Shown: one piece after another, positions 20,516-47,866 of the stretch
Layout of the letters: each line of letters starts with the position of its first letter
Numbering within the stretch: position 1 is the first letter of the stretch
DNA from: Nocardioidaceae bacterium
GTDB taxonomy: Bacteria > Actinomycetota > Actinomycetes > Propionibacteriales > Nocardioidaceae
Direction: 5' to 3'
Assembly: GCA_035477015.1 (NCBI GenBank)
Contig: DATILB010000372.1
Coordinates: forward strand, 1-55,219
DNA: 55,219 nucleotides
Made by a program: the position numbers and the translations under genes
The notes under the pieces: model-generated
What the model was told of the DNA's origin: nothing
Databases searched by the model: none
Seen by the model: only the letters and a program-made list of their open reading frames with translations

Positions 20516-20808
20516 TCCGGCTTCTTGCCTTACCGCCTCGGCCGCCGGTCGGGCGCTGGTTGTCGTTGCCGCGGTGCACAGGACTTCGGTCCAGCCAGAG
20601 CGCTTGTTGGCTCGCTGCGCTCGCGTTGAGCGGATTCGCGTTACCCGCAACGCGCCGCTAGTATTTGCAGGTTGCCTCGGCGAGGGAGTCTCTCCTCCGT
20701 GATCGACGCGGTCGTCGCGCTTTCCGCGCGCGCGGGTTTGATGAGCCCCCTTCCGCCCTGGCCACCACAGATGTCCAGTCGCAGGAAGCAATCGAGGAGT
20801 TCGCCCGC

Positions 20809-23509: not shown

Positions 23510-23676
23510 GTGGACCCCCCGGTCGATGTGGTTCCCCCCGGAACCGAGTGCCTTGCGACCACCCCGTGGCGCTCTCGGCACTAAGCAAATTCTCGCGTTG
23601 CGATCTGTTCCACGCAAGTTCAAACGCCATGAACCACCCGTTCGGACTACCTGTGAGTTCGCCCACTCACGTGCTG

Positions 23677-23702
23677 GAAACCCCTTGTTTATAAGGGGTT
23701 TC
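23677..23702. promoter_or_regulatory. Locus motif copy a: perfect 10+6+10 palindrome
   Basis: GAAACCCCTT-gtttat-AAGGGGTTTC followed by GCG. It lies between the GT2 stop (23715) and the sugar-transferase start (23509). Confidence 0.5.
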
Positions 23703-23714
23703 GCGTCCAGCCCC

Positions 23715-24629
23715 TCAAATGCCCTTGCCGTGACGGTGGAGTGTCTCCATCACGCGACCAGGTCGTACGGCGCCGACGGCGACAGCGGCTGCGAGGTACG
23801 CGCGCGGCTCCCGAGCGCTGCGACGCAAGGACTGTCGTGCCCAGCGCAGACCCTCGCGCCGGTTGCCCATCGCGGCCTGTGCGAACGCGATCTGTCCGTG
23901 CACCCGGGCCGAGCCTCGAGGTGACGACTCGAACTCGGGGTAGCGCTCCAGCAGCCACGAGAGCCCGTCTGACATGGTCTCCCACCGCCGGAAGAAGAAC
24001 GACTGCTTGCCCCACCGGATCACCGTCAATGGTTGCTGCACGTTGACGATCGGATGCACCTTCGCGGTGCGCAACAGGAACTCGTAGTCCTCACCGAAGC
24101 CACCGGGCACGTCCTCGTCGACGGGGCCGATCGCCCGGTCGAGAACGCTGCGGCGCAACAGGAAGGTCGAGGGGTGCAGCTCGGTGTGCCGGTCGCGCAG
24201 CAGGTCGTCGAAGGTCACCAGGTCCAGGTCGAGGACGCGGTCGAACTCGTCGCCGTCGTACTGGACGCGGATGCCCGTCGTGCACATGCCTGCCGCCGGA
24301 GCCGCCGCGATCGCAGCCACCTGCGCCGTGATCTTGCCGGGCAGCCAGAAGTCGTCGTCGTCGCAGAACGCGACGTACGCACCCGTTGTCGCCTCGATGC
24401 CGGAGTTGCGGCCGCCCGCCAGACCCACGCTGTGGGTGTTGCGGATGACGCGCACGCTGCGGCGGTGCGCCGTCTGCTCGAGGGTGAGGTCCGGCTCGGA
24501 CTGGTCGAAGACGACGACGACCTCGATGAAGCCGAGGTAGTCCTGCTGGAGGACGGCCGAGATCGCCTCACGGACCATCTCGGGACGATCGCGGGTCGCA
24601 ATGACGACAGAGACCAACGGGTGGCTCAC
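23715..24629 (-). CDS. Family 2 glycosyltransferase
   Basis: VSVVIATRDRPEM… and the DxD motif FCDDDDFW. GTG 24629 forms a GTGA overlap with the upstream gene. Confidence 0.85.
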   Translation of the reverse strand: MSHPLVSVVIATRDRPEMVREAISAVLQQDYLGFIEVVVVFDQSEPDLTLEQTAHRRSVRVIRNTHSVGLAGGRNSGIEATTGAYVAFCDDDDFWLPGKITAQVAAIAAAPAAGMCTTGIRVQYDGDEFDRVLDLDLVTFDDLLRDRHTELHPSTFLLRRSVLDRAIGPVDEDVPGGFGEDYEFLLRTAKVHPIVNVQQPLTVIRWGKQSFFFRRWETMSDGLSWLLERYPEFESSPRGSARVHGQIAFAQAAMGNRREGLRWARQSLRRSAREPRAYLAAAVAVGAVRPGRVMETLHRHGKGI

Positions 24630-26053
24630 GATCGACTCCCCAGGTAGCCGTGCTTGCGCAGAGTCGGCCACGACAGCGCGGTGGACACGTAGCGGTGGCG
24701 CGTCGGGAGGCCGCTGCGCCAGTCATCGGGAGCCTCGAGCTGGAGCGGACCACTGTGGAAGCGCAGGGGATACCCGGCGACGGAGTGCGCCGGCGCCAGC
24801 TTGATGCGACCGTCGTGCGTCACGCGCACCGACGGTGCCTGCGGCAGGTCGTGCTCCTGCCAGACGCGCATCAGCTCGGCCTCGGGACTATCGAGGACGT
24901 CCTCGAAGCGTGTCTTCACGACGCGGACTCCTCGGTAGGGAAGTCCCCGCATCGTGACGTGGTGGCGCACCCACTGACGGGTGACGCGACTGGCGGTGCT
25001 GGGCTGCTCCTGTTGGTCCCCCACCGCACGGGCTCGGCTGTGCAGGACCCCCCGGCTGTCGCGTACGACGTGCAGGACCCGAAGGTCGATGTGCCTGTTG
25101 TGGCTCAGCGCGACCGCGGTGGGTGCGACTCGCGAGGAGTCCACCACGATGCCGGCGCCGGTGAGCTCGGCCGCGGCGTCGTAGATGCGTCGGTAGTACT
25201 CGGAGTACTCGAAGAGCAGGCGGCGCAGCTCGCTGCGCGGAGAGCGACGCGCGGTGCGGTGCAGCATCCGCTGACGGTCGACCTCCGCCTTGAGCGTGAG
25301 CACGTGGCGGACGTCGACCTTGTCCCAGCCGCCGAAGGCGCGATCGCCGACGAGGGTCCAGAACTCGCAGTCCCGGAAGTGCTCGCCGCAACCACAGGGC
25401 TCGTTGGAGAGCAGGCCGCGCTGCCAGAGGTGGGCCACCTCGCCCAGGACGACGACGTCGTCGACGCCACCGAGGATCCGCTCGAGGACGTCCGAGCCGC
25501 TGTGCTCGTCGCAGGCCAGGTAGAGCACGGTTGTCGCTCCCTCGGCCACCGGGAGTCGCCGCCCGTCGAACCTCTCCAGGAGCTGGGTCAGTCGCGTCGC
25601 AGTGTCATCCGTGGAGTGTCCGCCGTCAGTCTCGCTTCGAGTGCTGCCGAGATCGGCTACGAGCAGGTCGATCTCGTCGACCTCGGTGACGAGCTGCACC
25701 AGGCCCTTCGCTGCGGCCCACGCTGCGAAGCGCATCTGGTGGTCGTCGACGTGCTCGTTGTGCTCCGGGTTGCGCGCCAGGGTGATGGGGCGGTGTCCCT
25801 GTTTGCGTACGTCCATGATGGTGCCGGGCCCACCATGAGTAATGACGACGTCGGACTCGGCGGCCAGCGTGCCGAGGTCGTCGGGTGAGAAGAAGGCAAC
25901 GCCTGTGGCGACTGCGGGACCGGCGGTATGGCCGTGCTGGATGACGACCGTGTCGGCCGGGTTGGCGGACTGATGAGCATCTGCCCAACGCACGAGCCGA
26001 TCGAACCGATGGTGGTCGGTGCCGACGAGGATCGTGATCCGCCGGCCGCTCAT
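24626..26053 (-). CDS. Fusion protein: Alg13-like (Glyco_tran_28_C / PssE-Cps14G-type) glycosyltransferase subunit plus a C-terminal sulfotransferase-like domain
   Basis: The N-terminal ~150 aa reads ITILVGTDHHRFDRL…VVITHGGPGTIMD…DDHQMRFA. The C-terminal ~310 aa is collinear with the stand-alone sulfotransferase at 26671..27588 (VLGEVAHLWQRG…CGCGEHFRDCEFW…VVRDSRGV…). Confidence 0.8.
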   Translation of the reverse strand: MSGRRITILVGTDHHRFDRLVRWADAHQSANPADTVVIQHGHTAGPAVATGVAFFSPDDLGTLAAESDVVITHGGPGTIMDVRKQGHRPITLARNPEHNEHVDDHQMRFAAWAAAKGLVQLVTEVDEIDLLVADLGSTRSETDGGHSTDDTATRLTQLLERFDGRRLPVAEGATTVLYLACDEHSGSDVLERILGGVDDVVVLGEVAHLWQRGLLSNEPCGCGEHFRDCEFWTLVGDRAFGGWDKVDVRHVLTLKAEVDRQRMLHRTARRSPRSELRRLLFEYSEYYRRIYDAAAELTGAGIVVDSSRVAPTAVALSHNRHIDLRVLHVVRDSRGVLHSRARAVGDQQEQPSTASRVTRQWVRHHVTMRGLPYRGVRVVKTRFEDVLDSPEAELMRVWQEHDLPQAPSVRVTHDGRIKLAPAHSVAGYPLRFHSGPLQLEAPDDWRSGLPTRHRYVSTALSWPTLRKHGYLGSRS

Positions 26054-26547
26054 AGCAGCGGCCCGACTTCAATCATGTTGTTGTACAGCGCCCTCTGCTC
26101 GGGCCACTGCGCAAGCATCAGGTCGGTGAACGGTCTGACCAGCTTGCCGGTCAGGGTCGGTGTCTCGATGCGGTCGAAGACCTCGATGTAGACGGTACGG
26201 ACACCCTGCGAGCGAGCCAGCGCGAAGTAGGGCAGGGCGACTGCAGCTCCGGTCGAGATGACGACCGTCGGCTGGAAGCGCCGCATCGTCACGCGCGCCT
26301 GGACGCTGTTGCGCATCAGGTTCCGCGCGTTGCGCGTCGTCGGGTGGTAGGCCCAGGTCACGTCCTTCTCGCCGCCGAGCAGCGCGATGGCATCGGGCGT
26401 GTCGAACGTCACCCAGGCATGCGGCTTGTCCTGCCACCACGGCCGCAGCCGCATCAGCTGGGCAAGGTGCCCCCCACTCGAGCCCACCAACAGAATCCGG
26501 TCATCAAGCTTGACCGACGCCTGAACGGACGTTGAATCCTGGCGCAT
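26050..26547 (-). CDS. Alg14-like (PssD/Cps14F-type) glycosyltransferase membrane-anchor subunit
   Basis: ILLVGSSGGHLAQLMRL…VVISTGAAVALPYF… ATGA overlap with the Alg13-like gene. Confidence 0.8.
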   Translation of the reverse strand: MRQDSTSVQASVKLDDRILLVGSSGGHLAQLMRLRPWWQDKPHAWVTFDTPDAIALLGGEKDVTWAYHPTTRNARNLMRNSVQARVTMRRFQPTVVISTGAAVALPYFALARSQGVRTVYIEVFDRIETPTLTGKLVRPFTDLMLAQWPEQRALYNNMIEVGPLL

Positions 26548-26593
26548 GACGCCCCCCGGTTTTTGAACCCCCCGACGCGGTCCCCACGATCGC

Positions 26594-26619
26594 GTCTTCC
26601 CTTATTCTAAAGGGGTTTC
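26594..26619. promoter_or_regulatory. Locus motif copy b; contains TAGAAT (-10-like) facing the Alg14-like operon
   Basis: GTCTTCCCTT-attcta-AAGGGGTTTC followed by GCG. On the minus strand it reads CGCGAAACCCCTTTAGAATAAGGGAAG, 57 nt upstream of ATG 26547. Confidence 0.5.
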
Positions 26620-26670
26620 GCGACTCTCAGAACCAATCTGGACCGGGCTGAGCGTGCGCTGAGTCGTAGT

Positions 26671-27588
26671 TCACAGGTAGCGGTAGGCCTTGAGCGCGGG
26701 GTAGCTGAGCGCGGTGACGAGGCGTCGCTGGCGCGGCTCCATCTCGTCCTTCCACGCGGTGTCGGGACGCAACGTGGTCGATCCGGTGCGGAACCGCATC
26801 GGGTTGCCGGCGACCGAGTGTGTGGTGTTCAGGACGACCGTGCGCTCGTCGACGAGCGGCAGCTCCGCCGTACCGGGGAGCTCGAGCGCGCTCCACGAGT
26901 CCCGCACCGTCCCTGCCACGTCATCGAGGAGGTCCTCATAGCGCACTCGATGGACGGGCACGCCTCGGTAGCTCAGCGCACCCATGGACAGGTTGTGGCT
27001 GAGCCACAGCTGGGTGCTCGCACGTGCCCCGAGCCGCGGCATCGCCTCCTCGCCGCCCGTCTCGGGCCGTGGCACGTGCTTGGACCAGCTGTACGCCACA
27101 CCGCGGCTGTCGCGCACGATGTGCAGGATGCGCAGGTCGATCCCCTCGTGGTGGCTGAGCGCCAACGCTGTCGGGGCGACCTTGCTGGAGTCCACTACCA
27201 CGCTTGCACCGGTGACCCTGCGTGCTGAGTCGTAGATGCGACGGAAGTAGTCGGCGTACTCGTGGCTTTGTTCCTTGATCCGACGAGACGGTCGTCGCCG
27301 TGTCGTCGCCGGCATGCGCCGCTGCCGGTCCACCGCGTCCTTCAGGGCTCGGATCCGCTCGATGTCGACCGATGCCCACCCGTTGAAGGCGTCCGTCCCG
27401 ACGGCGCTCCAGAACTCGCAGTCGTGGAAGGGCTGCCCGCAGGCGCACAGCTCGTTGAGGACGACGCCGCGCTCCCAGAGGTGGGCAACCTCGCCCAGGA
27501 CCGTGACCTGGGGCAGTTCTGCGAGGAGACACTCGAGCAGCGTCGAACCGCTGCGACCTGATCCCCCGATGTAGAGCGTCGTGTCCAC
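26671..27588 (-). CDS. PAPS-dependent sulfotransferase family protein
   Basis: 5'-PSB-like loop IGGSGRSGSTLL, 3'-PB-like IVRDSRGVAYS, and Cys motif CACGQPFHDCEFW. Confidence 0.8.
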   Translation of the reverse strand: MDTTLYIGGSGRSGSTLLECLLAELPQVTVLGEVAHLWERGVVLNELCACGQPFHDCEFWSAVGTDAFNGWASVDIERIRALKDAVDRQRRMPATTRRRPSRRIKEQSHEYADYFRRIYDSARRVTGASVVVDSSKVAPTALALSHHEGIDLRILHIVRDSRGVAYSWSKHVPRPETGGEEAMPRLGARASTQLWLSHNLSMGALSYRGVPVHRVRYEDLLDDVAGTVRDSWSALELPGTAELPLVDERTVVLNTTHSVAGNPMRFRTGSTTLRPDTAWKDEMEPRQRRLVTALSYPALKAYRYL

Positions 27589-27639
27589 CGTGCGTCCCCC
27601 TTCGGCCCCAGAGGGCCATGGTCAGTCAGGATAAGGGAC

Positions 27640-28158
27640 GTGACGATCGAGCAGCTGCGGATGATGTGCCGGCGAGACCTTGCCGCGAACAAGGGCTATC
27701 CGAAGAGCATCGTCGTGCTGCTGGCGTTCCGAGTCGCGCAGTACTTCAGGTCTCGCCGGGGGCTGGTCGGCCGAATCGTCTACGTGCCCGTCGGTACGGC
27801 GTACAAGCTCTTCTCGGAGTGGCTGCTCGGCATCGAGATCCCTGCGAGCACCGCCATCGGCCCCGGGCTGATGCTCCGCCATGGTGTCGGCATCGTCATC
27901 AACCCGGCCGTCGTGATCGGGTCCGACGTCATGATCCGGCAGAACGTCACCCTCGGGAACCGCCTCGCCGACGACGACTGCCCGGTGATCGAGGACGGCG
28001 TCGAGCTCGGTGCAGGGGCGGTGGTGATCGGACGCGTGACCGTCGGAGCCGGCGCCCGCATCGGCGCAGGCGCCGTGGTCGTCAAGGATGTGCCGCCCGG
28101 TGGGGTGGCGATCAATACCTCGACCGAGATCCGGCCAGGACAGCTGCCGCGCACATGA
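27640..28158 (+). CDS. Hexapeptide-repeat O-acetyltransferase, serine acetyltransferase (CysE/EpsH)-like
   Basis: …GIEIPASTAIGPGLMLRHGVGIVINPAVVIGSDVMIRQNVTLG… followed by LbH repeats. Confidence 0.8.
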   Translation: MTIEQLRMMCRRDLAANKGYPKSIVVLLAFRVAQYFRSRRGLVGRIVYVPVGTAYKLFSEWLLGIEIPASTAIGPGLMLRHGVGIVINPAVVIGSDVMIRQNVTLGNRLADDDCPVIEDGVELGAGAVVIGRVTVGAGARIGAGAVVVKDVPPGGVAINTSTEIRPGQLPRT

Positions 28159-29383: not shown

Positions 29384-29417
29384 GTCTGCGTCCTGAGAGT
29401 GTGCGAAGCCAGTGTTG

Positions 29418-29443
29418 GCGTCCCGTTATTCTAGAGTTTCGCG
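29418..29443. promoter_or_regulatory. Locus motif copy c in the Wzy/PCP divergent gap; TAGAAT faces the Wzy-like gene
   Basis: GCGTCCCGTTATTCTAGAGTTTCGCG. On the minus strand it reads CGCGAAACTCTAGAATAACGGGAC, 45 nt upstream of ATG 29383. Confidence 0.45.
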
Positions 29444-29486
29444 CCTTTGGTGCGGATTGAGCTGTCCACGCGGCCAGGGGGTCCCA

Positions 29487-30995
29487 GTGAGCGATACCAG
29501 GACCGAGGTCCCGGCCTTGGAGCTGGGCCGCTACGTCGCCGTCGTACGTCGCAGGTGGGCCGTCGTGCTGTCGGTCGCCGGGGTACTCCTGCTGCTGTCC
29601 GTGGGATACCTGGTCGTCAAGGATCGCCAGGCGACGGCAACCGCAGTCGTGAACATCAACATCATCCGGTCGGATGCCTTCAACAACGACCGCTCGCTCT
29701 CGACGCTGGTCGACGCGCAGACCGAGCAGCAGCTGGCCCGCTCTGCAGGAGTCATGACCGGAGCGGCCGAGAAGCTGGGCAACGGGCAGACCGTGCAGCA
29801 ACTGCGTGGCCGCACCCAGGTCTCCCCGCTGCCGGCGTCGACGATCGTGCGTCTGTCCTTCACCTCGGGCAGCATCGAGCAGGCCGTTGCCGGCGCCGAT
29901 GCCGTCGCGGTGTCGTACCTCGAGTTCCGTGAGGCACAGGCCGAAGCGAAGATCACCGCGATCACCGCACGGCTCAACGAGCGCGGGGACGTGCTGCGCA
30001 AGAAGCTCATCGGCGCGAACACCACGCGCTCCAACGCCGCGCCGGGCAGCCCTGCCGCAGTCCAGGCAGCCAGCGACGTGGACCTCACGACCATCCAGCT
30101 CAACTCGCTCTCCGACCAGATCAACGCCCTCGAGAGCGTCGACACGGCCGGTGGCACGGTGACCATCTCGGCGGCAGACAGCCCCGTCACGATCAGCCCG
30201 GCGCGAGGCATGGTGCTCCTCACCGGCCTGGCCGGTGGCCTGCTCCTCGGCATCATCGCGGCCTTCGTGCTGCACGCCGTCGACCGTCGACTGTTCGACG
30301 CGGTGTCAGTGACGCGCGCCGGTGGCGGCGCGGTCCTCGGGCGGTTCCGTCAGCCCATCGAGGCACTTCCGCTGTCCGGCATCGCCGCGGACGACACGCG
30401 GGTCCTTCGCGAGCGACTGCTCGCTGCGCTCCCCAGGAACGCCGCCCTTACCGTGCTCGAGGTTCCGGGAGGCCCTGGCCTGGCAGACGTGGCGTCCGCT
30501 CTCGCATGGGCCTACGCCGTCGGCAAGAACCCGGCCCACCTCGTGCTCCCGCTGCCCGACCTCGGTCAGGTCGAAGCGCTGGTCCGTGACCTCGACCTCG
30601 TCGTGGAGCAGCAGGAGAGCCACTTCACCCGCTATTCGTCGACGACGGTCCCGAACCTCATGGTGTCCGTCGGCGAGGCCTCGTCCGGCGATCCTGCTGA
30701 CGGGTTGGTCGAAGAGCTGCTCGAGGCGGTGCCAGGGCGCATGGTGCTCGTCGCCCTCGGACCTGACGTCACCGAGTCGGCCAGGTTGTCCGTAGCCCGG
30801 GCAGCCCCAGCGACGCTGCTCGTCGTACGCCCGGGACTGACGCGTCGTACCAAGCTGGTCGACGTCGTCACTGAGCTCGAGTCGGTCGGCGGGAGCGTGG
30901 TCGGTTCGGTGCTGGTGCCGATCGACGCTGCGGGCGCGCGTCAGCTGCCGTCGGCGCTGACGTCCCGGATCCGCCGCGCCGGCACCCCGGCGTAG
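29487..30995 (+). CDS. Polysaccharide co-polymerase (Wzz/PCP-2-like) with a degenerate C-terminal BY-kinase-like domain
   Basis: TM helix, Wzz-like periplasmic/coiled-coil region, second TM helix, then a P-loop-NTPase-like domain. In that domain the Walker A position reads VPGGPGLAD (no GK[ST]) and there is no C-terminal Tyr cluster. GTG 29487 follows AGGGGG. Confidence 0.7.
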   Translation: MSDTRTEVPALELGRYVAVVRRRWAVVLSVAGVLLLLSVGYLVVKDRQATATAVVNINIIRSDAFNNDRSLSTLVDAQTEQQLARSAGVMTGAAEKLGNGQTVQQLRGRTQVSPLPASTIVRLSFTSGSIEQAVAGADAVAVSYLEFREAQAEAKITAITARLNERGDVLRKKLIGANTTRSNAAPGSPAAVQAASDVDLTTIQLNSLSDQINALESVDTAGGTVTISAADSPVTISPARGMVLLTGLAGGLLLGIIAAFVLHAVDRRLFDAVSVTRAGGGAVLGRFRQPIEALPLSGIAADDTRVLRERLLAALPRNAALTVLEVPGGPGLADVASALAWAYAVGKNPAHLVLPLPDLGQVEALVRDLDLVVEQQESHFTRYSSTTVPNLMVSVGEASSGDPADGLVEELLEAVPGRMVLVALGPDVTESARLSVARAAPATLLVVRPGLTRRTKLVDVVTELESVGGSVVGSVLVPIDAAGARQLPSALTSRIRRAGTPA

Positions 30996-31492
30996 ACCCC
31001 GCCAGGCTCGCAGCGGCCGGTGACGACCGCACCTGCCGCGATCACGCAGCCGGACTCCACGACGGCCCCTGGCAGCACGAGCGCACGGGCGCCGAGCCAG
31101 ACCTTGTCGCCGATCGTGGTCGTCGTGAAGAACGAGTCCTTCGAGGCTCCACCGCGAGTGTCTAGCTCATGTGAGGCCGTGAGGATCGTCACCTGCGGAC
31201 CGAGGTGGCAGTGCTCGCCGATGACGATGCGCCCGCCGGCTGCGTCGAGGTAGGCCTCGTGGTTGATGAACGTCCCCTTGCCGATGCTCAGGTCCGATCC
31301 GGTGATCCGTGCGCCGCTGAAAACGTTTATCGTGCGCACATCCAGGCGCGCGGCACGGTAGAGCAGCCAGCGCAGCGGCCGGGGGACCAGGGCCGACCCG
31401 GCCAGCGCGTTGAGGAACAGGTGCCTCACGGCGATGGTCAGATCGAGACGCAGAGCCCGCGCGATACGTGACCGATTCGACACGTCGTTCAT
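30941..31492 (-). CDS. Hexapeptide-repeat (LbH) acyl/acetyltransferase, maltose/galactoside O-acetyltransferase-like
   Basis: …IGKGTFINHEAYLDAAGGRIVIGEHCHLGPQVTILTASH…IGDKVWLGARALVLPGAVVESGCVIAAGAVV… ATG 31492 follows GGAGGT. Confidence 0.8.
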   Translation of the reverse strand: MNDVSNRSRIARALRLDLTIAVRHLFLNALAGSALVPRPLRWLLYRAARLDVRTINVFSGARITGSDLSIGKGTFINHEAYLDAAGGRIVIGEHCHLGPQVTILTASHELDTRGGASKDSFFTTTTIGDKVWLGARALVLPGAVVESGCVIAAGAVVTGRCEPGGVYAGVPARRIRDVSADGS

Positions 31493-31548
31493 GGTCTGGT
31501 GACCTCCGGTCCCGGTGTACGGCGCTTCTCGGGTCGGCCGAGGGTCGC

Positions 31549-31574
31549 GTTTCGCCTTAGAATAAAGGGAATTC
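31549..31574. promoter_or_regulatory. Locus motif copy d in the acetyltransferase/flippase divergent gap; TAGAAT faces the flippase
   Basis: GTTTCGCCTT-agaata-AAGGGAATTC. TAGAAT at 31558-31563 is 28 nt upstream of ATG 31591. Confidence 0.5.
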
Positions 31575-31590
31575 ATGAGTTAGTGACCTC

Positions 31591-33159
31591 ATGTTAGAGC
31601 CTGGCGCCCACGGGGGGCCCTGGACCAGGAGCGACAGGATTTCTGACGACCGAGCGACCCTGAACCGTCCGAGCGCAGAGCTCGGACGGGCTGCTCGTGG
31701 TGGTGCAGTGACGTTCGTCGGCGCCGCGATGAGCGCCGGGCTCGGGTTCCTGTTCAGCGTCCTGGTCGCTCGAGCGCTCGGCACTGCGGGTGCGGGTGTC
31801 GTCCTGCAGACCATGGCTGTCTTCACGATGACGCTCAGCTTCGCCAAGCTCGGCCTCGACACCACCGCTGTCTGGCTGCTTCCGCGTCTCGTCGGTGAGG
31901 ACCGGGCTTCGGTGCGCCCAGCCGTCCTCGTCATGCTGGCCGGCGCACTCGCCGGCGGGGTGCTGGCGCTGTGCATCTGGCAGGTCGTCGCTGCGACTGC
32001 TCTCGCGGACGCCACCGAGGTCGTCGAAGCCCTCGACGTCGCGATGTGGCTTCTGCCGGCGGCGAGCGTCATGACCGTGGCCTTGGCCGCCACCCGTGCG
32101 TTCGGCGGTGTCCTGCCCTACAACCTGATCGGCAACATCACTGTCCCCGCACTGCGCCCCTTGGGCCTCGCCCTTGTGGTCGCGCTCTCGGGTGGCGCAG
32201 TCGGCGTTGCGCTCTCGTGGTCCTTGTCGTGGCTTATCGGTGCGGTGGCCGCGCTCTTCGTCCTCGCGCGCCAGCTCGGTCGTCACACGGAGCGGTCCGG
32301 GTGGCGACCCCGCCAGGGGAAGGTGCGCCAGATCTCGTCGTACGCCGTGCCGCGCACCTTCGCCGCGGGTCTCGAGCAGGCGATGGTGTGGCTCGACGTG
32401 GTGCTTGTCGGTGTGCTCCTTGGCGCCGCGGAGGCTGGGGTGTACGGCTCGGCTGCGAGGTTCGTCAGCGCCGGCGTCATCGTCGCCACGGCCCTGCGCA
32501 TCGTCGTCGCACCGCGGTTCAGTGCGCTCCTCGCGAAGAAGCGCATCGATGCCGTCGACGAGCTCTACTCCGTGACCGCGCAGTGGATCCTGCTCTTCGG
32601 TGCTCCGATCTACGTGCTCCTGGCGTTCTACGCACCCACGGTGCTGGGTTGGCTCGGACCTGGCTTCGACGACGGTGCTGCCGCGATGGCGGTCCTGTGT
32701 GTCGGGTCGATCGTCGTGCTGGCGGCCGGCAATGTGCAGGCACTGTTGCTGATGAGCGGACGTAGCTCCTGGGGGGCGTTCAACAAGCTGGTCGTCGTCG
32801 TGGTGAACGTCGTCGGCAACCTGATCCTGCTGCCGCGGGTCGGCATCATCGGCGCTGCGGCCATGTGGGCGGCGTGCATGGCCTTGGACACGGCGCTGGC
32901 CGCCTACCAGGTCCGTCGCACCGTCGGCATCGCCGTCTTCGGGCCGACCCTCCTGCGCGTCGCCGTAGCCGTCGTCGCCTGCACCGTGGTTCCTGCGGGC
33001 GTCCTGGCCTGGCTGGCGGGCCAGAATGCCGCTTCGTTCCTCACTGCTGTTCTCCTCTCGGGGCTGCTCCTCCTCGCCTACGCCCGGCACGACCGGGCCA
33101 GGCTCCACCTCGACCAGCTGTTGAAGCCGGGAAGGAACGACCATGTCGACGATGTCTGA
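31591..33159 (+). CDS. Wzx-like oligosaccharide flippase (MOP superfamily polysaccharide biosynthesis protein)
   Basis: About 14 TM helices, an N-terminus …GAAMSAGLGFLFSVLVARALGTAGAG…, and locus context. Confidence 0.8.
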   Translation: MLEPGAHGGPWTRSDRISDDRATLNRPSAELGRAARGGAVTFVGAAMSAGLGFLFSVLVARALGTAGAGVVLQTMAVFTMTLSFAKLGLDTTAVWLLPRLVGEDRASVRPAVLVMLAGALAGGVLALCIWQVVAATALADATEVVEALDVAMWLLPAASVMTVALAATRAFGGVLPYNLIGNITVPALRPLGLALVVALSGGAVGVALSWSLSWLIGAVAALFVLARQLGRHTERSGWRPRQGKVRQISSYAVPRTFAAGLEQAMVWLDVVLVGVLLGAAEAGVYGSAARFVSAGVIVATALRIVVAPRFSALLAKKRIDAVDELYSVTAQWILLFGAPIYVLLAFYAPTVLGWLGPGFDDGAAAMAVLCVGSIVVLAAGNVQALLLMSGRSSWGAFNKLVVVVVNVVGNLILLPRVGIIGAAAMWAACMALDTALAAYQVRRTVGIAVFGPTLLRVAVAVVACTVVPAGVLAWLAGQNAASFLTAVLLSGLLLLAYARHDRARLHLDQLLKPGRNDHVDDV

Positions 33160-35247: not shown

Positions 35248-35289
35248 GGGGGTCCTCCGGAGGATGGCGACCAAAGTAGGTTCTGCAGA

Positions 35290-35315
35290 GATTTTCCCAC
35301 GTGGTAAGGGGATTC
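35290..35315. promoter_or_regulatory. Locus motif copy f in the divergent gap between the APH-like gene and the first large secreted protein
   Basis: GATTTTCCCA-cgtggt-AAGGGGATTC, 43 nt upstream of ATG 35247 on the minus strand. Confidence 0.4.
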
Positions 35316-35464
35316 TCTGACGCTCAGCACCTCGCAGGGTGAGACATGTCACGTGCGCTCAGGGTTGGGCTGTGTCATGGATGGGTAACAAATGACCCCT
35401 ACCATGGAGGTTCAGTCCGGGGGGGTCCGGACGTTGAGCCGACGCGTGGGGTGTCGGGGGGGGT

Positions 35465-38400
35465 ATGAAATTCATGCGAACTTTGCGCTGCTTGCTCGCG
35501 GCTGGCGTGGTGGCCTCATTGGCTGCTTTCGTGCCGCTGCTGGAGACCGCGTCCGCCGCCACCTCTGTCGATGCCACTGTCGTCGGCACCACGTCCGACA
35601 CGGCCGCTGGCTCCTGCTGGGAGATCAAGCAGGCCCGGCCTTCGGCCGCTGACGGCACCTACTGGCTGCTCACGCCCAAGATGCTCGAGCCGCAGCAGTT
35701 CTACTGCGACATGACCACCGACGGCGGTGGCTGGGTGCTCGTTGGCAAGGGCCGCAACGGCTGGACGAACGAGTACGACGGTCAGCGCGCCGCGTCCGAG
35801 CTGACGACTTCCGGGTTGTCGCCGATGTCGGCCCGCACCACTCAGCTTCCGTCGTCGACCATCGACGCGCTGCTCAACGGCGGCAGGGTCGACGCACTCT
35901 CCGAGGGCATCCGGCTGCGCCGGGCGAAGGACGCCGCGGGCAACACCTGGCAGGAGGCGCGGTTCAAGCTGAGCTCGCGCGACCGCTGGGCGTGGACCTT
36001 CGGTGCCGAGCACCCGCTGGCCAGCTGGTCGTTCGACGCGACCACCGGTTCGGGCGGCATCACCGAGAGCTTCGGCTCGCAGCAGTCCTACAACCGCGTG
36101 CACAACGTGCCGATCGCGGCGCAGAAGTACGCCCAGGCCTTCGCCTACGGCTCCTCGGTCACCGGCACGTCGGCGACCGACTCCTACCTGTGGTCGTCCA
36201 CCTCGGGTGGCGGCAACGCAATCCCCTACACGCAGGTCTACCTCCGACCGCGCGTGCTCTCGAGCGACGCAGGCTTCACGACCATCCCGGACGCAGGCAC
36301 GGTCGGCTACGAGCAGCAGTCGGTGGCTCGCTCCAACGCCCTCAACTCGCCGTGGGGCGTCTCCGGCCTGGCCGGCAACACCGAGCGCGAGGGGGCGGTC
36401 GAGGTCCAGGCCTTCACGCAGTCCGGCGACACGATGTACGTCGGCGGCAACTTCCGCTACGCGCAGCGCGACGAGCTGGCCACCGACCGCGTGGAGCAGC
36501 CCTTCCTCGCGGCCTTCTCGGTCAGCACGGGCGAGTGGGTCAGCACCTTCCGGCCGGTGCTCAACGAGCAGGTCAAGACCTTGGCGACCCTGCCCAATGG
36601 CTCGGTCCTCGCAGGGGGCGAGTTCACCGTGGCCAACGGCCTGTCGCGCACGATCATCGCGCTCGACCCGGTCACCGGTGCGACGGACCCGTCGTTCAAC
36701 CTCACGGCCGAGAACCGTCGTACCGACGGCGTCAACCGCATCGAGGTGCTCCGCGTTGTCGGCGACTACGTCTACGTCGGCGGCTCGATCACGCACCTGC
36801 TCGGTGGCCCCTCCATGCGGCAGGCCGTCGCCACCAACATGGGTCGCGCGTCCGTCACGGACGGGTTGACCTCCACCGACTGGAACCCGAACTTCAACGG
36901 CACTGTGATGGACGTCGACGGCACTGACGATGGCGGTCGCGTGTTCGCCGTCGGCTTCTTCTCGACCGCCGGGGGTGCGAACGCCAAGCGCGCGGCTGCG
37001 ATCTCCACGGCTCCGGGCGCTGCCCTCGCCTCGACGAGCTGGAACCCGACCTGGAGCAGCAGCACCGACTACCAGCAGGCGGTCGACGTCGTCGGCCCGA
37101 AGGCGTGGGTCGGCGGTTCCGAGCACTCGCTCTTCCAGTTCGACGTCGACAGCTACGCCCGCACCATGGGCGACATCATGAAGAAGAACGGTGACCTCCA
37201 GGACATCACGGCTGCCGCCAACGGCATCGTGTACGCCGGCTGCCACTGCAACAACTTCGACTACGCCAACGCCTACACCTGGCCCACCCTGTCGGCCGGC
37301 TGGAAGCAGGCTGACGCCATGAACTGGGTCGGCGCCTGGGACTCCGCTTCGGGCAAGCGCGTTCCGCAGTTCACGCCCGTCTTCTCGATGCGTCTCGGCT
37401 CCGGCGTCTGGGCGATCCAGCCCGACGACAGCGGCGTTCTCTGGGTCGGTGGCGACATCACCAACGTCCAGACGAGCAACCAGGCCAACCGGTTCTCGGG
37501 CGGGTTCGCGCGCTTCCCGCTGCGTGACTCGGCCGCGCCGACGACCCCGACCAACTTCCGCATCACTGCGGAGACGGGCACCGAGGTCACCCTCGCCTGG
37601 AACACCACGACCGACCCCAGCGGCGCCGGCTACCAGATCCTGCGGGACGACCGCCCGATCGCCAGCACCAAGCAGGGCTCGATCACGGTTCCCAAGGGCG
37701 GCCAGAACCGCTTCTTCGTGCGTACGTCGGACGGCGCCGGGAACGTGTCGGCGACCACCAGCGTGATCGTGTCCGAACCACTGGTCCGTGGCGCCGAGGC
37801 GTCGTTCACCCACACGGTGAAGCGGTCCGTGGCCTCCTTCGACGGCAGCGGGTCCTCGTCGGGCACCGGTGATGTCGAGACCTACGCCTGGACGTTCGGC
37901 GACGGTTCCACCGGCACCGGCGTCGCGCCCCAACACACCTACGCGGCTGCCGGCTCCTACTCCGTCACCCTGACCATCACGGACTCCACAGGCGCGCAGG
38001 ACAGCGTGACCCACACCGTCCAGGCCGGCACGCCGGCCGGTCCGGCCCCGACCGACAGCTTCGGCCGCAAGGTCTACGACCAGGAGCCCTACGTCTTCTA
38101 CCGGCTCGCCGAGGCGTCCGGCTCGACGGCAGTCGACAGCGGCCCGGACGTCCGCAACGGCACCTGGTCCGGAAGCAGCTGGACTCGTGCGGTTGCCGGG
38201 GCGCTGGTCAACAGCGACAACAAGGCCGCGTCCTGCGCCACCGGGTTCCTCGGTGGATCCTGCTTCGTGGCCTCGCCGAGCGTCGGCACGAGCCCCAACG
38301 CCTTCAGCATCGGCGTGTGGTTCAAGTCGACGTCGACGTCGGGAGGTCGACTGATCGGGTTCAGCTCGTCGGCAACCGGAACGTCGAGCAGCTATGACCG

Positions 38401-39532: not shown

Positions 39533-39572
39533 GCTTGGCCGCTCAGTCACCCACTCGTCGAAGGAGAGAGCG

Positions 39573-42794: not shown

Positions 42795-42801
42795 CGGCCG
42801 G

Positions 42802-42827
42802 ACATTCCCTTACAGAGCAGGCGATTC
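42802..42827. promoter_or_regulatory. Locus motif copy h (degenerate), just after the stop of the second large gene
   Basis: ACATTCCCTT-acagagc-AGGCGATTC, followed by TCC as in copy e. Confidence 0.3.
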
Positions 42828-42942
42828 TCCTCTGAGCGCTCGTCCGCACGGCTGAATGAAATGACCCGTTCGGCACCGCGAAAGCCCCCCGAAAGGATGG
42901 CCGTCATGACGGTCGACTCCTACTAGATTGACCCGCTCGGAG

Positions 42943-42967
42943 GGTTCAACGTTCATAGGGGTTTCAC
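42943..42967. promoter_or_regulatory. Locus motif half-site i, immediately upstream of the third large gene
   Basis: …GTTCATAGGGGTTTCAC… resembles the right half TCTAAAGGGGTTTCGCG of copy b. It may also just provide the RBS. Confidence 0.25.
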
Positions 42968-42972
42968 TCGCC

Positions 42973-44637: not shown

Positions 44638-45466
44638 CGAGGTAAGCGTTTGCGGCGCGCCCGTTGAACTGGTCGGTCGCCGACTCGATCGGGCCACCAT
44701 TGCGGGCGAGCTTCCCGCCCACCGACAGCGGGACGCCAGCCTCGGGCATCACGATGGCGCCGGTCCGTCCAGGCGCCGTGGTCTCGGTGGTGGTGACGCT
44801 GCCGTCGGGAGCGAACTCGGTCAGTGTCAGCGTGACCGCGTCCTCGGTGCGGTGACACTCCACGCGGTACCACCAGCCCGGCTGGATGAAGTCGGCGGAG
44901 CGCACGGCGACGACGCCCTCGGCGCCACGCACCAGGCAGCTCGGCCGGTCGCGGTCGATCTCGACCTTGAACATGACCGGGTCGCTGGACAGCCCTCTCT
45001 GGACGAGGTTGTCGCCGTTGTCGGCAGCTGCGCCCGAGGACTCCTTGTCGATCACGAAGTCGGCGCCGAAGCGGAAGTCCGCGGTCCCGGGGTTCAGCTG
45101 GTCCCGAGTGCCGGCGTTGACGACGCGGATGATCGCGCGGGGGTAGTACTCCGTGCGGACGAAGCCGGGGAAGTCAATCGCGGGTGAGGCGCCTGCCTCG
45201 GGGCTGCCCTTCACCGTCCGCAGCGCGCCGTCGTGCAGCCGAGCCGTGTCGATGGTGACCCCGGCGGAGCCGGCCTGCTCGAGGGAGCCGTCGGGTCCGA
45301 TCCGCAGCAGGAAGGTCGCGTTCTTGGGGATGCCGGTCGCGGTCGGCGTACGCGATGAAGAGGTGGTGGGGGAGCTCGGCCCCTCGGAGTCGAGATAGAC
45401 GCTCTCCGAGCAGCCGGTCGCCGTGAGGCCGAGGAGCAGCGCGGCCCAGTGCAGACGGCCGGTCAT
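44624..45466 (-). CDS. Lipoprotein with a LamG/ConA-like jelly-roll domain
   Basis: MTGRLHWAALLLGLTATGCSES (lipobox-like TATGC), an S/T/P linker, and a beta-rich domain ending …LSVGGKLARNG…QFNGRAANAYLV. ATGA overlap with the upstream hydrolase gene. Confidence 0.65.
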   Translation of the reverse strand: MTGRLHWAALLLGLTATGCSESVYLDSEGPSSPTTSSSRTPTATGIPKNATFLLRIGPDGSLEQAGSAGVTIDTARLHDGALRTVKGSPEAGASPAIDFPGFVRTEYYPRAIIRVVNAGTRDQLNPGTADFRFGADFVIDKESSGAAADNGDNLVQRGLSSDPVMFKVEIDRDRPSCLVRGAEGVVAVRSADFIQPGWWYRVECHRTEDAVTLTLTEFAPDGSVTTTETTAPGRTGAIVMPEAGVPLSVGGKLARNGGPIESATDQFNGRAANAYLVIAR

Positions 45467-46407
45467 GACTGCACCCACGATCGCCAGGCCTGGATGGAGG
45501 GCGTGTCGTCGAGCCGGTAGTGCCCGTCCCTGGTCGAGTCGAAGTACGTCACGAAGAGTGCCTGTTTGCGGGTCAGGTACCTGCCCACCCGCTGCAGCCA
45601 CTCGGCACGGGCGGTGCCGTCATCTCCGGCGATCAGGACCGAGCCGGTCTCCGCGATGCCGAACGGCTTGTTGGTCTCGCGGGATGCCTGGACGACGGGG
45701 CCGTAGATCGAGCGCGGCGACTCGTAGGACGTCGGCGCCTCGCTGTTGTACGGGTCCCAGCCCAGGACCGAGATGTAGCGCGGACCGGGGTAGTAGTCGC
45801 GCCAGTCACGGCCGGAGGCCGCATCTGCAGTCCAGCCGGTGAGGATCAAGGTCGGGTGGAGGTTCCGGTGGCACGCGTGCGTGGCCAGGTCGACCAGCCT
45901 GCGGAACGCCTGGCGGTACTGCTTTGCGGTGAACGCTCCGGCCAGGATCTGCGGCTCCGGCTCATGGAGGTAGCTCCACAGCACCTTGCCTTCGAGTGGT
46001 GCCTCTCGGAAGAAGCGCACGATCGCGGCGTCGTACGTGCCGGCGAGCACCTCGGCCGGGGGCATCCGGAACGACGTCACGACCATCCGCTTGCCGAGTG
46101 CTGCGCTGCGGTTGCTCCAGGCGTTGGCCGGGGGCAGTGCCGGGTCGAAGATGCGCACCGCGCGGAGGCGTCCGAACTTGCGCTGCTCGGCGGCCAGGGA
46201 CTCGGTGAACGAGAGCGACACCGTGGACAGCGAGGAGCCGAAGCGGGTCCAGTCGTCGCCCTCGACAAGAGGGGCGCGCCGACAGCCCTCGCGCGCGGTG
46301 ACCTGCGGGGCTTCCTCGGCGCCACTCGGCGTGATCGCGGTGAGACCCACGACCGCCGCGAGCATGACACCGCTGGTCAACCAGTGGCGGAGAGTGGGCC
46401 GGATCAT
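45463..46407 (-). CDS. Secreted TIM-barrel (clan GH-A, GH26-like) glycoside hydrolase
   Basis: Signal MIRPTLRHWLTSGVMLAAVVGLTAITPSGA. Candidate acid/base …LWSYLHEPE… and nucleophile …PFGIAETG… The family assignment rests on motif resemblance only. Confidence 0.55.
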   Translation of the reverse strand: MIRPTLRHWLTSGVMLAAVVGLTAITPSGAEEAPQVTAREGCRRAPLVEGDDWTRFGSSLSTVSLSFTESLAAEQRKFGRLRAVRIFDPALPPANAWSNRSAALGKRMVVTSFRMPPAEVLAGTYDAAIVRFFREAPLEGKVLWSYLHEPEPQILAGAFTAKQYRQAFRRLVDLATHACHRNLHPTLILTGWTADAASGRDWRDYYPGPRYISVLGWDPYNSEAPTSYESPRSIYGPVVQASRETNKPFGIAETGSVLIAGDDGTARAEWLQRVGRYLTRKQALFVTYFDSTRDGHYRLDDTPSIQAWRSWVQS

Positions 46408-46440
46408 CGTGCGAGTGCTCCAAGCGGTCGGGCAGGACGA

Positions 46441-46465
46441 GAATCCCTTGTATTACAAGGGATTC
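46441..46465. promoter_or_regulatory. Locus motif copy e: perfect 12+1+12 palindrome between the two hydrolase genes
   Basis: GAATCCCTTGTA-t-TACAAGGGATTC, 34 nt upstream of ATG 46407 and 37 nt downstream of the stop at 46502. Confidence 0.5.
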
Positions 46466-46501
46466 TCCCCGGTCCGATCGTCCGGGCGCAAACCTGTCCG
46501 A

Positions 46502-47698
46502 CTACTGGAGCGAGGCAGAGAAGGCAGTCACAGCCTGGGGGAATGCCCCCGTCGTGATCAGGTGATTGTCCTCACGCGCGCGGTTGAAGAAGACGCCCCA
46601 GGCGATGTCGAGGGTCGAGAACTTGCTTCGGAGGTTCGAGTAGAACGTCGCCAGCGCGGCGTCCCCGAACGACGTCGGCATCCCGAACTCACCGAGCCCG
46701 ATGGGCTGGCCGTCGTACCAGGCCTGGGTGCGGATCCAGGTCATGTCACCGGTGGCGATCGTGGCCATCGTGTCCGATCCGGTGTTGGCGTATGGGTCGA
46801 AGAGGAACATGGCCGGATCGGTCGTGAACTGGTCAGCGACCGTGCCCTCGAAGACTCGGTCGTAGCCGACGATCCAGTAGGTGGTGTGGATGTTGGCGGA
46901 GGCGGCCTTCGCCTTGGCGAAGAAGATCGACAGGGCCTTTCCGTACGTCGCCGGGTTCGCCGACTCGCCGGTGACCTGGCCGGTCCGCACCTTGACCTTC
47001 ATCTCGTGGTCGATCGTCGCGTAGACCGGCACCGTCGGGTCGACCAGCGCGAGCTGCTTGAGCTGGGCGACGTACTTGTCGAGCCAGGCCAGCGCGGTGG
47101 CATTGCCTGCCACGATGTCGGCCAGGAGCTGCGTGCCCTTCGTCGTGATGGTGATGTTCGGGCTGGTCCCGCGCCTGATCCGCGCGGTCTCGTAGGCCAG
47201 GTTGATGTTCTGGTAGTCCTGGTAGTACGTCGACGCCACGTCTGGATACGCGCCGAAGTCGGCCAGGGTCTTCTCGTCGGGGCTCTCCGAGGGACCGCCG
47301 TTGTAGACGCCCAGCCCGGGCTCCGGCGGAGGCGGTGGGGTCACGGTCGGACTCGGCGTGGGGGTCGGCGTTGGCGTCGGTGTGGGTGTTGGGGTCTGCG
47401 TAGGCGTGGGGGTGGGCGTCGGCGTGGCGGTGTGGGTGGGTGACGGCTTGGTTGGCTTCGGCTTGCCATTGCCCCACCCGAGCACCGCGAGGACGGCGTC
47501 GACGACCTCGTTCTGCGTGACGGCTCGCTCGGCCTTCTGTGCGCGAGGTGGTTTCGGATCATCACCCTGGTCACTGCCACGGGCGAGTGCGGCGCTGGTC
47601 GCGCCGGCGCCGCCGAGCACGATGAGGCCCGACGTCACAGCTGCGGCCAGGCCGGTACGCCGACGAGGACGGTTAATGCGGTTGCCAGACAGATTCAT
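46502..47698 (-). CDS. Secreted (Tat-like signal) GH-A/GH26-like glycoside hydrolase with a Pro/Thr linker
   Basis: …NRPRRRTGLAAAVTSGL… twin-Arg signal, a (TP)n linker, and a catalytic-domain candidate with …ATIDHEM… and …IGLGEFG… ATG 47698 follows GGGAGAG. Confidence 0.55.
   Translation of the reverse strand: MNLSGNRINRPRRRTGLAAAVTSGLIVLGGAGATSAALARGSDQGDDPKPPRAQKAERAVTQNEVVDAVLAVLGWGNGKPKPTKPSPTHTATPTPTPTPTQTPTPTPTPTPTPTPSPTVTPPPPPEPGLGVYNGGPSESPDEKTLADFGAYPDVASTYYQDYQNINLAYETARIRRGTSPNITITTKGTQLLADIVAGNATALAWLDKYVAQLKQLALVDPTVPVYATIDHEMKVKVRTGQVTGESANPATYGKALSIFFAKAKAASANIHTTYWIVGYDRVFEGTVADQFTTDPAMFLFDPYANTGSDTMATIATGDMTWIRTQAWYDGQPIGLGEFGMPTSFGDAALATFYSNLRSKFSTLDIAWGVFFNRAREDNHLITTGAFPQAVTAFSASLQ
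47321..47461 (-). repeat. Low-complexity coding repeat encoding a Pro/Thr linker
   Basis: Translates to KPKPTKPSPTHTATPTPTPTPTQTPTPTPTPTPTPTPSPTVTPPPPPEP. The DNA is a degenerate GGTGTGGG/GGCGTCGG-type periodicity. Confidence 0.8.
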
Positions 47699-47840
47699 GA
47701 GGAGCTCTCCCAAACGTCCTATGAATTGCGCGATGCGGGTGGGGGGTCCCCGCGACAGCGAGCCTAGTGATGAATCACCCCAAGCCGCACCTATTCCTCA
47801 AATCGGATAAGTCGCCGTTTCGGTAGGGGTCCGGCGGCCT

Positions 47841-47866
47841 GATTCACCTATGAAAGAGTTCTCGCG
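47841..47866. promoter_or_regulatory. Possible degenerate locus motif copy j abutting the cysQ start
   Basis: GATTCACCTATGAAAGAGTTCTCGCG resembles copy c (…GTTATTCTAGAGTTTCGCG). It may simply contain the cysQ RBS. Confidence 0.25.

Follow-up and report, generated by a model that had tools for sequence, protein, structure and literature searches.

The window analyzed here is a stretch of 55,219 nucleotides from a Nocardioidaceae bacterium, uncultured and placed in that family also by its best protein matches (contig DATILB010000372.1 of assembly GCA_035477015.1, forward strand), and our subject is a 26 bp inverted repeat, GAAWNCCCTT-N6-AAGGGNWTTC, found at six gene boundaries within it. All six elements lie inside a glycan cluster of the sulfated-polysaccharide type (22082–48648), in which Pfam scans identify a priming sugar transferase, GT2, an Alg13–sulfotransferase fusion, Alg14, two further sulfotransferases, two hexapeptide acetyltransferases, Wzy, Wzz, a flippase, two giant PKD proteins, a DUF5122 protein, two GH26-like proteins and a CysQ-like phosphatase. 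Alg13 and Alg14 form a split glycosyltransferase, the CysQ-like protein is a PAP phosphatase and the giant proteins are of the PKD/LamG type; sulfotransferases that stand alone number three when the cluster is taken as a whole, in addition to the Alg13-fused one. Together these genes have the appearance of a pathway that makes a sulfated polysaccharide, either surface-bound or exported. The cluster is flanked on the left by core genes (rsmI, tatD, rpfB, ksgA, ispE, glmU, prs, ctc and pth) and on the right by LigD and a thiolase, and the G+C content is uniform across the window (66–70%).

The cluster is syntenic with contigs L001, L004, L211 and L212. The nearest relatives are two metagenome-assembled genomes (MAGs), GCA_035699605.1 (L001) and GCA_035699525.1 (L211), and two Logan contigs, L208 and L212 (SRR18218241), together with a contig of a JGI metagenome (L125); the protein identity of these near relatives to the window is 72–91%. 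More distant syntenic clusters (L004, L206, L207, L209 and L210) show 41–69% identity.

Element 1 (23677–23702) is a perfect 10+6+10 palindrome, GAAACCCCTT-GTTTAT-AAGGGGTTTC, located 13 nt past the GT2 stop codon and 54 nt ahead of the start codon annotated for the priming sugar transferase (both genes on the minus strand); its orthologues are at L001:8103 and L208:~3125. Element 2 (26594–26619, minus strand) lies between a sulfotransferase gene and Alg14, 5' of the Alg14/Alg13–sulfotransferase/GT2 operon, and reads GAAACCCCTT-TAGAAT-AAGGGAAGAC on the gene strand, with TAGAAT at 26604–26609 (−) and TATTCT at 26603–26608 (+). It has orthologues at L001:5191, L125:322 and L208:~225. Element 3 (31549–31574, plus strand), in the gap between a divergent acetyltransferase gene (minus strand) and the flippase gene (ATG 31591, plus strand), contains TAGAAT at 31558–31563 within TAGAATA, which reads TATTCT on the minus strand; orthologues upstream of the flippase are at L001:699 and L212:13412. 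The remaining three elements, like element 1, carry no strand. Element 4 (35290–35315) occupies the divergent gap between the gene for unk449, a 414-residue protein of unknown type (ATG 35247, minus strand), and that for a 1355-residue PKD protein (35465, plus strand); it combines a consensus arm, AAGGGGATTC, with a deviating one, GATTTTCCCA, and is matched in the same 26 nt frame at L211:9922 and L212:9645. Element 5 (42802–42827), at the 3' end of the PKD operon, is 8 nt past the second PKD stop codon and ∼95 nt 5' of a conserved TAGATT −10 hexamer (42923–42928) of the DUF5122 gene, with orthologues in the same 26 nt frame at L211:2447 and L212:5368. Element 6 (46439–46467), between the two GH26-like genes (both minus strand), is a perfect 14+1+14 palindrome, GAGAATCCCTTGTA-T-TACAAGGGATTCTC, which the earlier note on this DNA had correctly called perfect and had taken to be shorter (12+1+12 at 46441–46465). 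Its orthologue, L212:1704, reads CAATTCCCTT-GTAGGC-AAAGGAATTC.

All six copies are thus found at orthologous boundaries in relatives, which is the check on conservation that the earlier note had proposed. The spacer DNA beside the sites is often unalignable or diverged; 5' of the Alg14 site, the alignment collapses exactly at the left arm. The elements are invariant in both of the soil-metagenome DNA runs that contain the locus, and the deviant arm of element 4 (TGGGARAATC) is kept in three lineages.

Half-site position matrices were built from the relatives' copies alone, so that a scan of the window with gaps of 5–7 is independent of the window and not circular. The scan gave seven matches of at least 12 bits, compared with 0.2 expected in Markov shuffles: 23677 (34.5 bits), 26594 (26.4), 31549 (23.2), 46440 (13.9), 42802 (13.6), 37340 (12.9) and 35290 (12.3). 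The match at 37340 is within a coding region and is probably due to chance. Three of the sites exceed the top score in 200 shuffles (19.4 bits), and 35290 and 42802, which are marginal in the window alone, are validated by their orthologues in L211 and L212 (12.6 bits for element 4; 25.3 and 28.6 bits, respectively, for element 5). No copy was found by the matrix scan in the flanks at 1–22 kb and 48–55 kb, in agreement with the earlier note, which by eye had not seen the CCCCTT…AAGGGG form in the core regions; the density is six copies in the 25 kb cluster and none in the 30 kb flank. That form, which the note had taken as ideal, occurs in its exact version, CCCCTT-N(0–12)-AAGGGG, only once (at 23681) and in two of 100 shuffles. 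What holds is a shorter invariant core, CCTT-N6-AAGG; the looser pattern CCTT-N(4–9)-AAGG has ten matches in the window, four of them inside elements, with 1.1 expected.

These figures bear directly on whether the elements merely look alike by chance, as AT-rich promoters may in a genome of high G+C content. Some of the constituent words are indeed unremarkable (TAGAAT occurs three times with 1.8 expected, and CGCGAAAC three times with 2.5 expected), and four of the ten copies or half-sites listed in the earlier note are not significant. Every sequence that it quoted is present where it was placed, and 23677, 26594, 31549, 35290, 42802 and 46441 stand as copies; 29418, 27621, 42943 and 47841 score below zero (−9.2, −12.9, −2.2 and −5.7 bits) and were rejected as palindromes. 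The first of these is a promoter core, TAGAATA, with one arm reduced to CGCGAAAC, and the second is the shared −10 region of a divergent sulfotransferase/acetyltransferase pair. A copy is accordingly present in six of about ten real gaps, so that 'almost every intergenic gap' was an overstatement. For the six core copies, chance has already been refuted, by the shuffles and by the orthologues of every site, and the note's own proviso that the similarity might be insignificant against a background model does not apply to them; we leave this explanation practically no probability.

The nature of the symmetry was examined in an alignment of 17 copies under a hairpin model of ten base pairs enclosing a six-nucleotide loop, with 500 shuffles of the 3' letters as the null. 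The 10+6+10 frame is present in 16 of the 17 copies. Positions C7, C8, T9, T10, G20 and C26 are invariant and G19 is nearly so, which defines the core as CCTT-N6-AAGG with an outer G…C, while columns 4–6 and 21–23 vary freely and without compensation. Pairing is found in 71.2% of cells compared with 72.2% after shuffling (413 of the 500 shuffles did equally well or better), the covariation score of 0.085 is below the shuffle mean of 0.095, and pairs 2–6 are unpaired in 35–59% of copies. At the BacT site (element 1), which of all the sites most resembles a hairpin, the changes between lineages are likewise uncompensated: the window has CCCC/GGGG, L001 has CGCC/GGGG and L208 has GCCC/GGCG. The absence of compensatory pairing, taken with the conserved deviant arms, indicates that the symmetry is, as read from these alignments, one of sequence and not of a maintained hairpin, as a two-fold symmetric protein on duplex DNA would impose. 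Furthermore, paralogous genes within the cluster are only ∼45% identical, whereas copies of the element are 80–100% identical to one another; shared descent without sequence-specific selection cannot explain arms so nearly identical, and we take a sequence-specific trans factor to be needed.

The same observations limit the most serious competing explanation, that the elements are terminator-like or repetitive extragenic palindromic (REP)-like hairpins in RNA or DNA which end or stabilize the upstream transcript, two of them having later gained a −10 hexamer in the loop while their stems decayed. The earlier note had offered a REP-like RNA hairpin as its alternative. It is right that the elements at 23677 and 46441 fold perfectly (−15.3 and −20.9 kcal mol−1, with perfect stems of 10 and 13/14 bp), that five of the six sites lie 3–76 nt past a co-directional upstream stop codon in at least one lineage, and that the stems are weakest in the copies bearing TAGAAT. 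Element 6 of L212, moreover, has one extra base per arm relative to the window and keeps its symmetry. Set against this are the lack of covariation in the 17 copies with their frequently broken pairs, the arm sequence common to the sites and the conserved unpaired deviations, which a hairpin leaves unexplained. No U-tract follows any copy, and at element 4, between divergent genes, no transcript arrives; ancestrally the same is true of element 3. The copies are also fixed orthologously, six within 25 kb, unlike a dispersed REP family. We regard hairpins as unlikely on balance, with a share of the probability that is nevertheless appreciable.

The elements were also compared with known hairpin families. 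REP elements and bacterial interspersed mosaic elements (BIMEs) of proteobacteria resemble the present family as imperfect palindromes of ∼26–30 nt with a lineage-specific consensus, intergenic, often past stop codons and capable of forming hairpins; the elements described here differ in being confined to one cluster within 55 kb and orthologously fixed across genus-level divergence, show no covariation or tandem BIME-like array and are unaccompanied by a RAYT/Y1 transposase in the window. Intrinsic (bidirectional) terminators share the succession of A-tract, G+C stem and T-tract (GAAA-CCCC…GGGG-TTTC) 8–52 nt past stop codons, but the elements have no U-run beyond three stem-paired U residues, the stems are degenerate in four of six, the sites have a common arm sequence and one of them lies between divergent genes. 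Neither the consensus promoter scan nor the terminator scan reported any of the elements, UUU being present only inside the stem, and Rfam 15 gave no match at gathering score over the whole window. A generic inverted-repeat search was swamped by GC-rich chance repeats, and the literal half-sites retrieved only primers and unrelated sequences from the literature.

A strict-palindrome scan of 185,579 genomes was also made, and the figures that follow concern the matches listed from it. Most of them are copies of a REP-like repeat found in a single Deltaproteobacteria MAG or hairpins of terminator type, the latter drawn from many phyla. At least 19 copies are actinobacterial; in 17 of 19 the W positions are matched, and the stems are extended inward in 14 of 19 and outward in 14 of 19. 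The actinobacterial copies listed either come 7–36 nt after a stop codon (that of leuD, of an aldehyde dehydrogenase gene or of an aldo-keto reductase gene) or precede DUF222 genes, and none lies near homologues of the cluster. These 19 copies behave as true hairpins, which speaks for the hairpin explanation, and past leuD and other genes the palindrome resembles a terminator. By a rough estimate from stem composition, the number of matches suggests what generic terminators would give, and it therefore says little about the window family beyond the fact that the sequence forms hairpins well.

Some of the matches deserve description in their own right. Directly 5' of a DUF222 (HNH, 13E12-repeat family) gene in three unrelated actinobacteria (L070:439, L118:344 and L089:217) is the hairpin GAATCCCCTTGTNNACAAGGGGATTC. 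Its distance from the gene is ∼40–50 nt in L070 and L118, whereas in L089 it runs into the called start; the L074 match is ∼940 nt away. It may be an end or control element of this repeated gene family. The leuD–hupB region of several Actinomycetota MAGs contains the palindrome at L052:5435 and L060:2260 (16 nt past the leuD stop codon), L107:3755 (∼143 nt 5' of hupB) and L121:1262 (beside an aconitase-family, LeuC-like gene), probably as the leuCD terminator. The Deltaproteobacteria MAG, S146_73 (L006–L122, contigs WGFF01...), has dozens of ∼45 nt repeats, TGAGGGAAACCCCTTTTGTAAAAGGGGTTTCCCTCAAACTCCC, often at contig ends; these are a REP-like family or one resembling miniature inverted-repeat transposable elements, and they have the palindrome core in common with the window elements by coincidence.

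TAGAAT is the commonest form of the actinobacterial σA −10 consensus TAnnnT. The three occurrences in the 55 kb are all intergenic and all directed at the downstream gene, as the earlier note had said, and we infer their use as promoters from the conservation of the hexamer. Two of the three are embedded in true copies of the element (26594 and 31549), and the third (29428), which the note had also counted as embedded, falls outside. Each of the three is followed by an A, and the resulting TAGAATA gives TATTCT on the opposite strand. The wider pattern TAnnnTA (TAnnnT on both strands with an offset of one base) occurs at four sites, 26603–26609, 27627–27633, 29427–29433 and 31558–31564.

Three of these four lie at the three divergent gene pairs, where TAnnnTA probably forms a shared bidirectional −10, a geometry that became visible once start codons had been corrected: the true start of the acetyltransferase beside element 3 is probably ATG 31492 (minus strand), and that of unk449, ATG 35247, is confirmed by P0156, the collection's copy of the window protein. 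Between Wzy (minus strand) and Wzz (plus strand), TAGAATA/TATTCTA at 29427–29433 is conserved in L001 and L212, its arms having decayed to leave CGCGAAAC. At 27627–27633, TATCCT would serve the sulfotransferase gene (minus strand) and CAGGAT the acetyltransferase gene (plus strand), within GTCCCTTATCCTGACTGAC, which is identical in L001; with this −10 the acetyltransferase GTG at 27640 would be leaderless. Such sites have the reciprocal −11A/−7T geometry of bidirectional promoters as described in PMC10268837, and bidirectional σ70-type promoters with a symmetric −10 are described by Warman et al. (2021), as summarized in PMC10268837 and PMC12825309.

The elements could accordingly be duplicated promoter modules that owe their symmetry to bidirectional σA promoters (TAnnnTA with an AAGGG discriminator/start region on each side) and that involve RNA polymerase only. 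The reciprocal pair, as TAGAATA/TATTCTA or TATCCT/CAGGAT, is present at all three divergent pairs. L001 and L212 lack the divergent acetyltransferase gene and read TAGAATC in place of TAGAATA, a change that abolishes the reverse hexamer alone. Downstream of the −10, AAGGG or AACGGG is present at four of the forward promoters predicted in the cluster (26594, 27627, 29427 and 31549) and at two reverse hexamers, and TAnnnTA is also found in the Wzy/Wzz gap of the distant clusters. The spacers at 23677, 35290, 42802 and 46441, however, contain no ANNNT or TANNNT on either strand; with four of six copies not centered on a −10, a promoter motif is not what unites the family. TAGAAT is displaced by one base at the flippase site relative to the Alg14 site, and the CCTT-N6-AAGG frame does not follow it, so that promoter and palindrome look like two superimposed signals. 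Finally, the symmetry described in PMC10268837 involves the −10 and −18T/+1A, and arms of 10 nt are foreign to that architecture. We consider promoter duplication improbable as the source of the family.

Several features of the leaders beside elements 2, 3 and 4 were recorded. The ∼48 nt Alg14 leader (26548–26596, minus strand) is almost invariant in four lineages and starts with a stem GACGCG…CGCGUC that is UACGCG…CGCGUA in three relatives (a compensatory G–C to U–A change) and longer in L208; it is probably a 5'-terminal stabilizing hairpin. The outer right arm of element 2 deviates because this leader overlaps it. Next to element 3, the window has a 17 nt insertion, and the position at which the flippase begins in L001 and L212 is taken up by a two-codon mini-ORF (open reading frame), ATG AGT TAG (31575–31593). 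The flippase start in the window, ATG 31591, has no Shine–Dalgarno sequence. The 110 nt 5' of the 1355-residue PKD gene (35353–35464) contain long C/G runs (CCCCCCCG…CCGGACCCCCCCGG) with no Rfam match, and column identity is 83% over 257 aligned columns containing them in three lineages; this region may be a structured leader.

The gap at element 3 also bears on the proposal that the elements are core sites of a tyrosine recombinase (∼10 bp inverted arms with a 6–7 bp spacer) marking exchangeable cassettes in the manner of Xer/pdif. Their 10+6+10 or 9+7+9 architecture stands exactly at cassette boundaries, and pdif modules with XerC/D-like borders are known (PMC5790767). The second hexapeptide acetyltransferase gene (30941–31492, minus strand), adjacent to element 3, is present in the window and missing from L001 (640–775) and L212 (13364–13454). 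No second copy of the element flanks this gene, and in L001 a 16 nt remnant of its 5' end persists within the 3' end of Wzz, which points to a simple deletion in that lineage. dif and pdif sites do share two inverted arms of ∼10–11 bp around a 6–8 bp center, and pdif sites lie at gene-module borders; the arms of the present elements are nevertheless unlike dif (GATAA/TTATG core), including the proposed actinobacterial (Frankia) dif CACGCCGATAATGCACATTATGTCAAGT (PMC3025954), and the spacers differ between sites, which would prevent mutual recombination. Pfam scans show no recombinase in the window, and apart from the one adjacent deletion there are no breakpoints, gene order being conserved around all six sites. 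Recombination is thus very improbable here.

Other identities were considered and rejected. An alternative σ promoter with GAAAC as its −35 does not fit by spacing, and a SigB/SigF-type GTTT-N14-GGGWAT fits one copy only. Sequestration through Shine–Dalgarno/anti-Shine–Dalgarno pairing would require a spacing from the start codon that is seen only at the L001 and L212 flippase genes. In parS and Noc sites GTTTC/GAAAC are arranged differently, CsoR-type C4/G4 operators differ in spacing, and attC is excluded as there is no RYYYAAC/GTTRRRY.

The reading that we favor, tentatively and at somewhat less than an even chance, is that the elements are operators for a dimeric regulator encoded elsewhere, placed over or beside σA promoters. 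One two-fold symmetric, probably dimeric protein, encoded outside the window, would bind the six sites as duplex DNA through the half-site GAAWNCCCTT, with the CCTT/AAGG cores 10 bp apart from center to center. Two of the sites, those of the Alg14 operon and the acetyltransferase/flippase pair, lie directly on the TAGAAT −10, and a protein bound there would shut out RNA polymerase and so act as a repressor; the remaining four have the next gene 11–150 nt downstream and may control that gene or block read-through. The location of five of the six sites 11–70 nt 5' of a start codon is consistent with this. The sites would thereby tie the priming transferase, the Alg13/14 operon, the flippase/sulfotransferase unit, PKD/DUF5122 and the GH26-like hydrolases into one co-regulated unit. 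The sites themselves are locus-restricted within the 55 kb, orthologously conserved and symmetric in sequence, and two overlap conserved −10 hexamers; protein binding and repressor action we infer from these properties. To that extent the shared operator/promoter module of the earlier note is borne out, and its 'regulon' goes a step beyond what the sites alone display.

A number of observations weigh against an operator. There is no regulator gene in the cluster or the 55 kb except a TetR gene beside a desaturase, and the promoter region of this TetR gene has no site in the matrix scan; the earlier note had likewise seen no regulator in the block, and Pfam searches, including a relaxed threshold (E = 1) for the window proteins without assigned domains, found no DNA-binding domain there. 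The elements at 23677 and 46441 are perfect palindromes over their whole length, in the latter with the spacer included, and since a dimeric protein does not need such perfection, it suggests selection for a hairpin or recent palindrome formation. Element 6 has a 9+7+9 geometry (arms one base shorter, spacer one longer) instead of 10+6+10. At the Alg14 site of L125 there are four arm changes although the 40 nt on each side are identical to L001, so that the arms appear weakly constrained there. The distant syntenic clusters (L004, L206, L207, L209 and L210) have neither the motif nor an obvious replacement, and the same is true of L003, which makes the family specific to this clade. The same palindrome is a generic terminator-like hairpin, unlinked to glycan genes, in other Actinobacteria. 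Lastly, the sequencing runs containing the locus are two low-coverage soil-metagenome DNA runs and no RNA runs.

Palindromic repressor operators over actinobacterial −10 regions are familiar from the LexA SOS boxes, from HspR/HAIR (CTTGAGT-N7-ACTCAAG) and from HrcA/CIRCE. The elements resemble these in having inverted half-sites at fixed spacing, in several copies per regulon, on or next to the −10 or start region, and in being conserved in sequence without covariation at orthologous promoters. They differ in that GAAWNCCCTT-N6-AAGGGNWTTC fits none of their consensuses, no regulator is linked to the cluster, three window sites are intercistronic and just past stop codons, and two are perfect including the spacer. 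JUMPStart/ops leader elements (RfaH, UpxY, LoaP) are single and asymmetric, are found in the 5' leader and work by way of a NusG paralogue that targets the polymerase during elongation. They too are cis elements specific to polysaccharide clusters that coordinate the expression of a long cluster; the window, by contrast, has six symmetric sites and no NusG paralogue by Pfam scans. A bolder version of the operator proposal, to which we give little credence, has one protein acting at the six boundaries both as repressor and as roadblock or insulator, splitting the cluster into switchable modules, with the sites perhaps serving as recombination points too, at which cassettes such as the acetyltransferase gene beside element 3 are gained or lost. 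We know of no description of an actinobacterial polysaccharide locus that is 'punctuated' by a protein in this way.

A second conserved palindrome, GTGAGT-N6-ACTCAC (23653–23670), lies 6 nt 3' of element 1 in gene orientation. In L001 and L208 it reads GTGAGTGG(T/C)CAACTTCAC, and the one C-to-T change still allows G–U pairing in the sense strand. A tandem hairpin and a second operator are both possible identities, and the likeness to the HAIR half-site is only loose.

Further observations concern the cluster and its surroundings. The GH26-like genes of L206 (3620–3905), L207 (9730–10010), L209 (4220–4445) and L210 (2645–2870) have a common long leader, ...GGGACTTTAGTCT...CATCACTGTTGGGAGGCAGTC(A/T)TG, of which the window GH26-like leader keeps the ribosome-binding part alone. 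Homologues of the Alg13–sulfotransferase fusion number more than 200 and are spread over Actinomycetota (Nocardioides, Actinotalea, Microbacterium, Arthrobacter and Euzebya). At the cluster edge, directly 3' of the CysQ-like gene, is a full-length serpin gene (48656–49975; Pfam Serpin, E = 4e-94). In the gap between prs and the L25 gene (ctc), a palindrome CGCGTT-ACCCGC-AACGCG (20637–20664) is followed by a TAGTAT −10; its counterpart in L001 (11216–11241), CGCCTTG-CGTG-CAAGGGC, shows a compensatory G:C to C:G change, and the site looks like a core-genome terminator-plus-promoter junction.

If the elements were ordinary hairpins the finding would be routine. What is solid is a conserved cis-element whose kind is familiar and whose pathway is not. 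The TAnnnTA pairs, with a reverse hexamer lost together with the reverse gene, illustrate how bidirectional promoters occur in nature beyond the proteobacteria that have served as models. To our knowledge little has been reported on the regulation of sulfated-glycan clusters in Actinobacteria; if the elements are operators, they would mark out a small regulon by which soil Nocardioidaceae control a sulfated-polysaccharide pathway, and the sites would provide the bait for its regulator.

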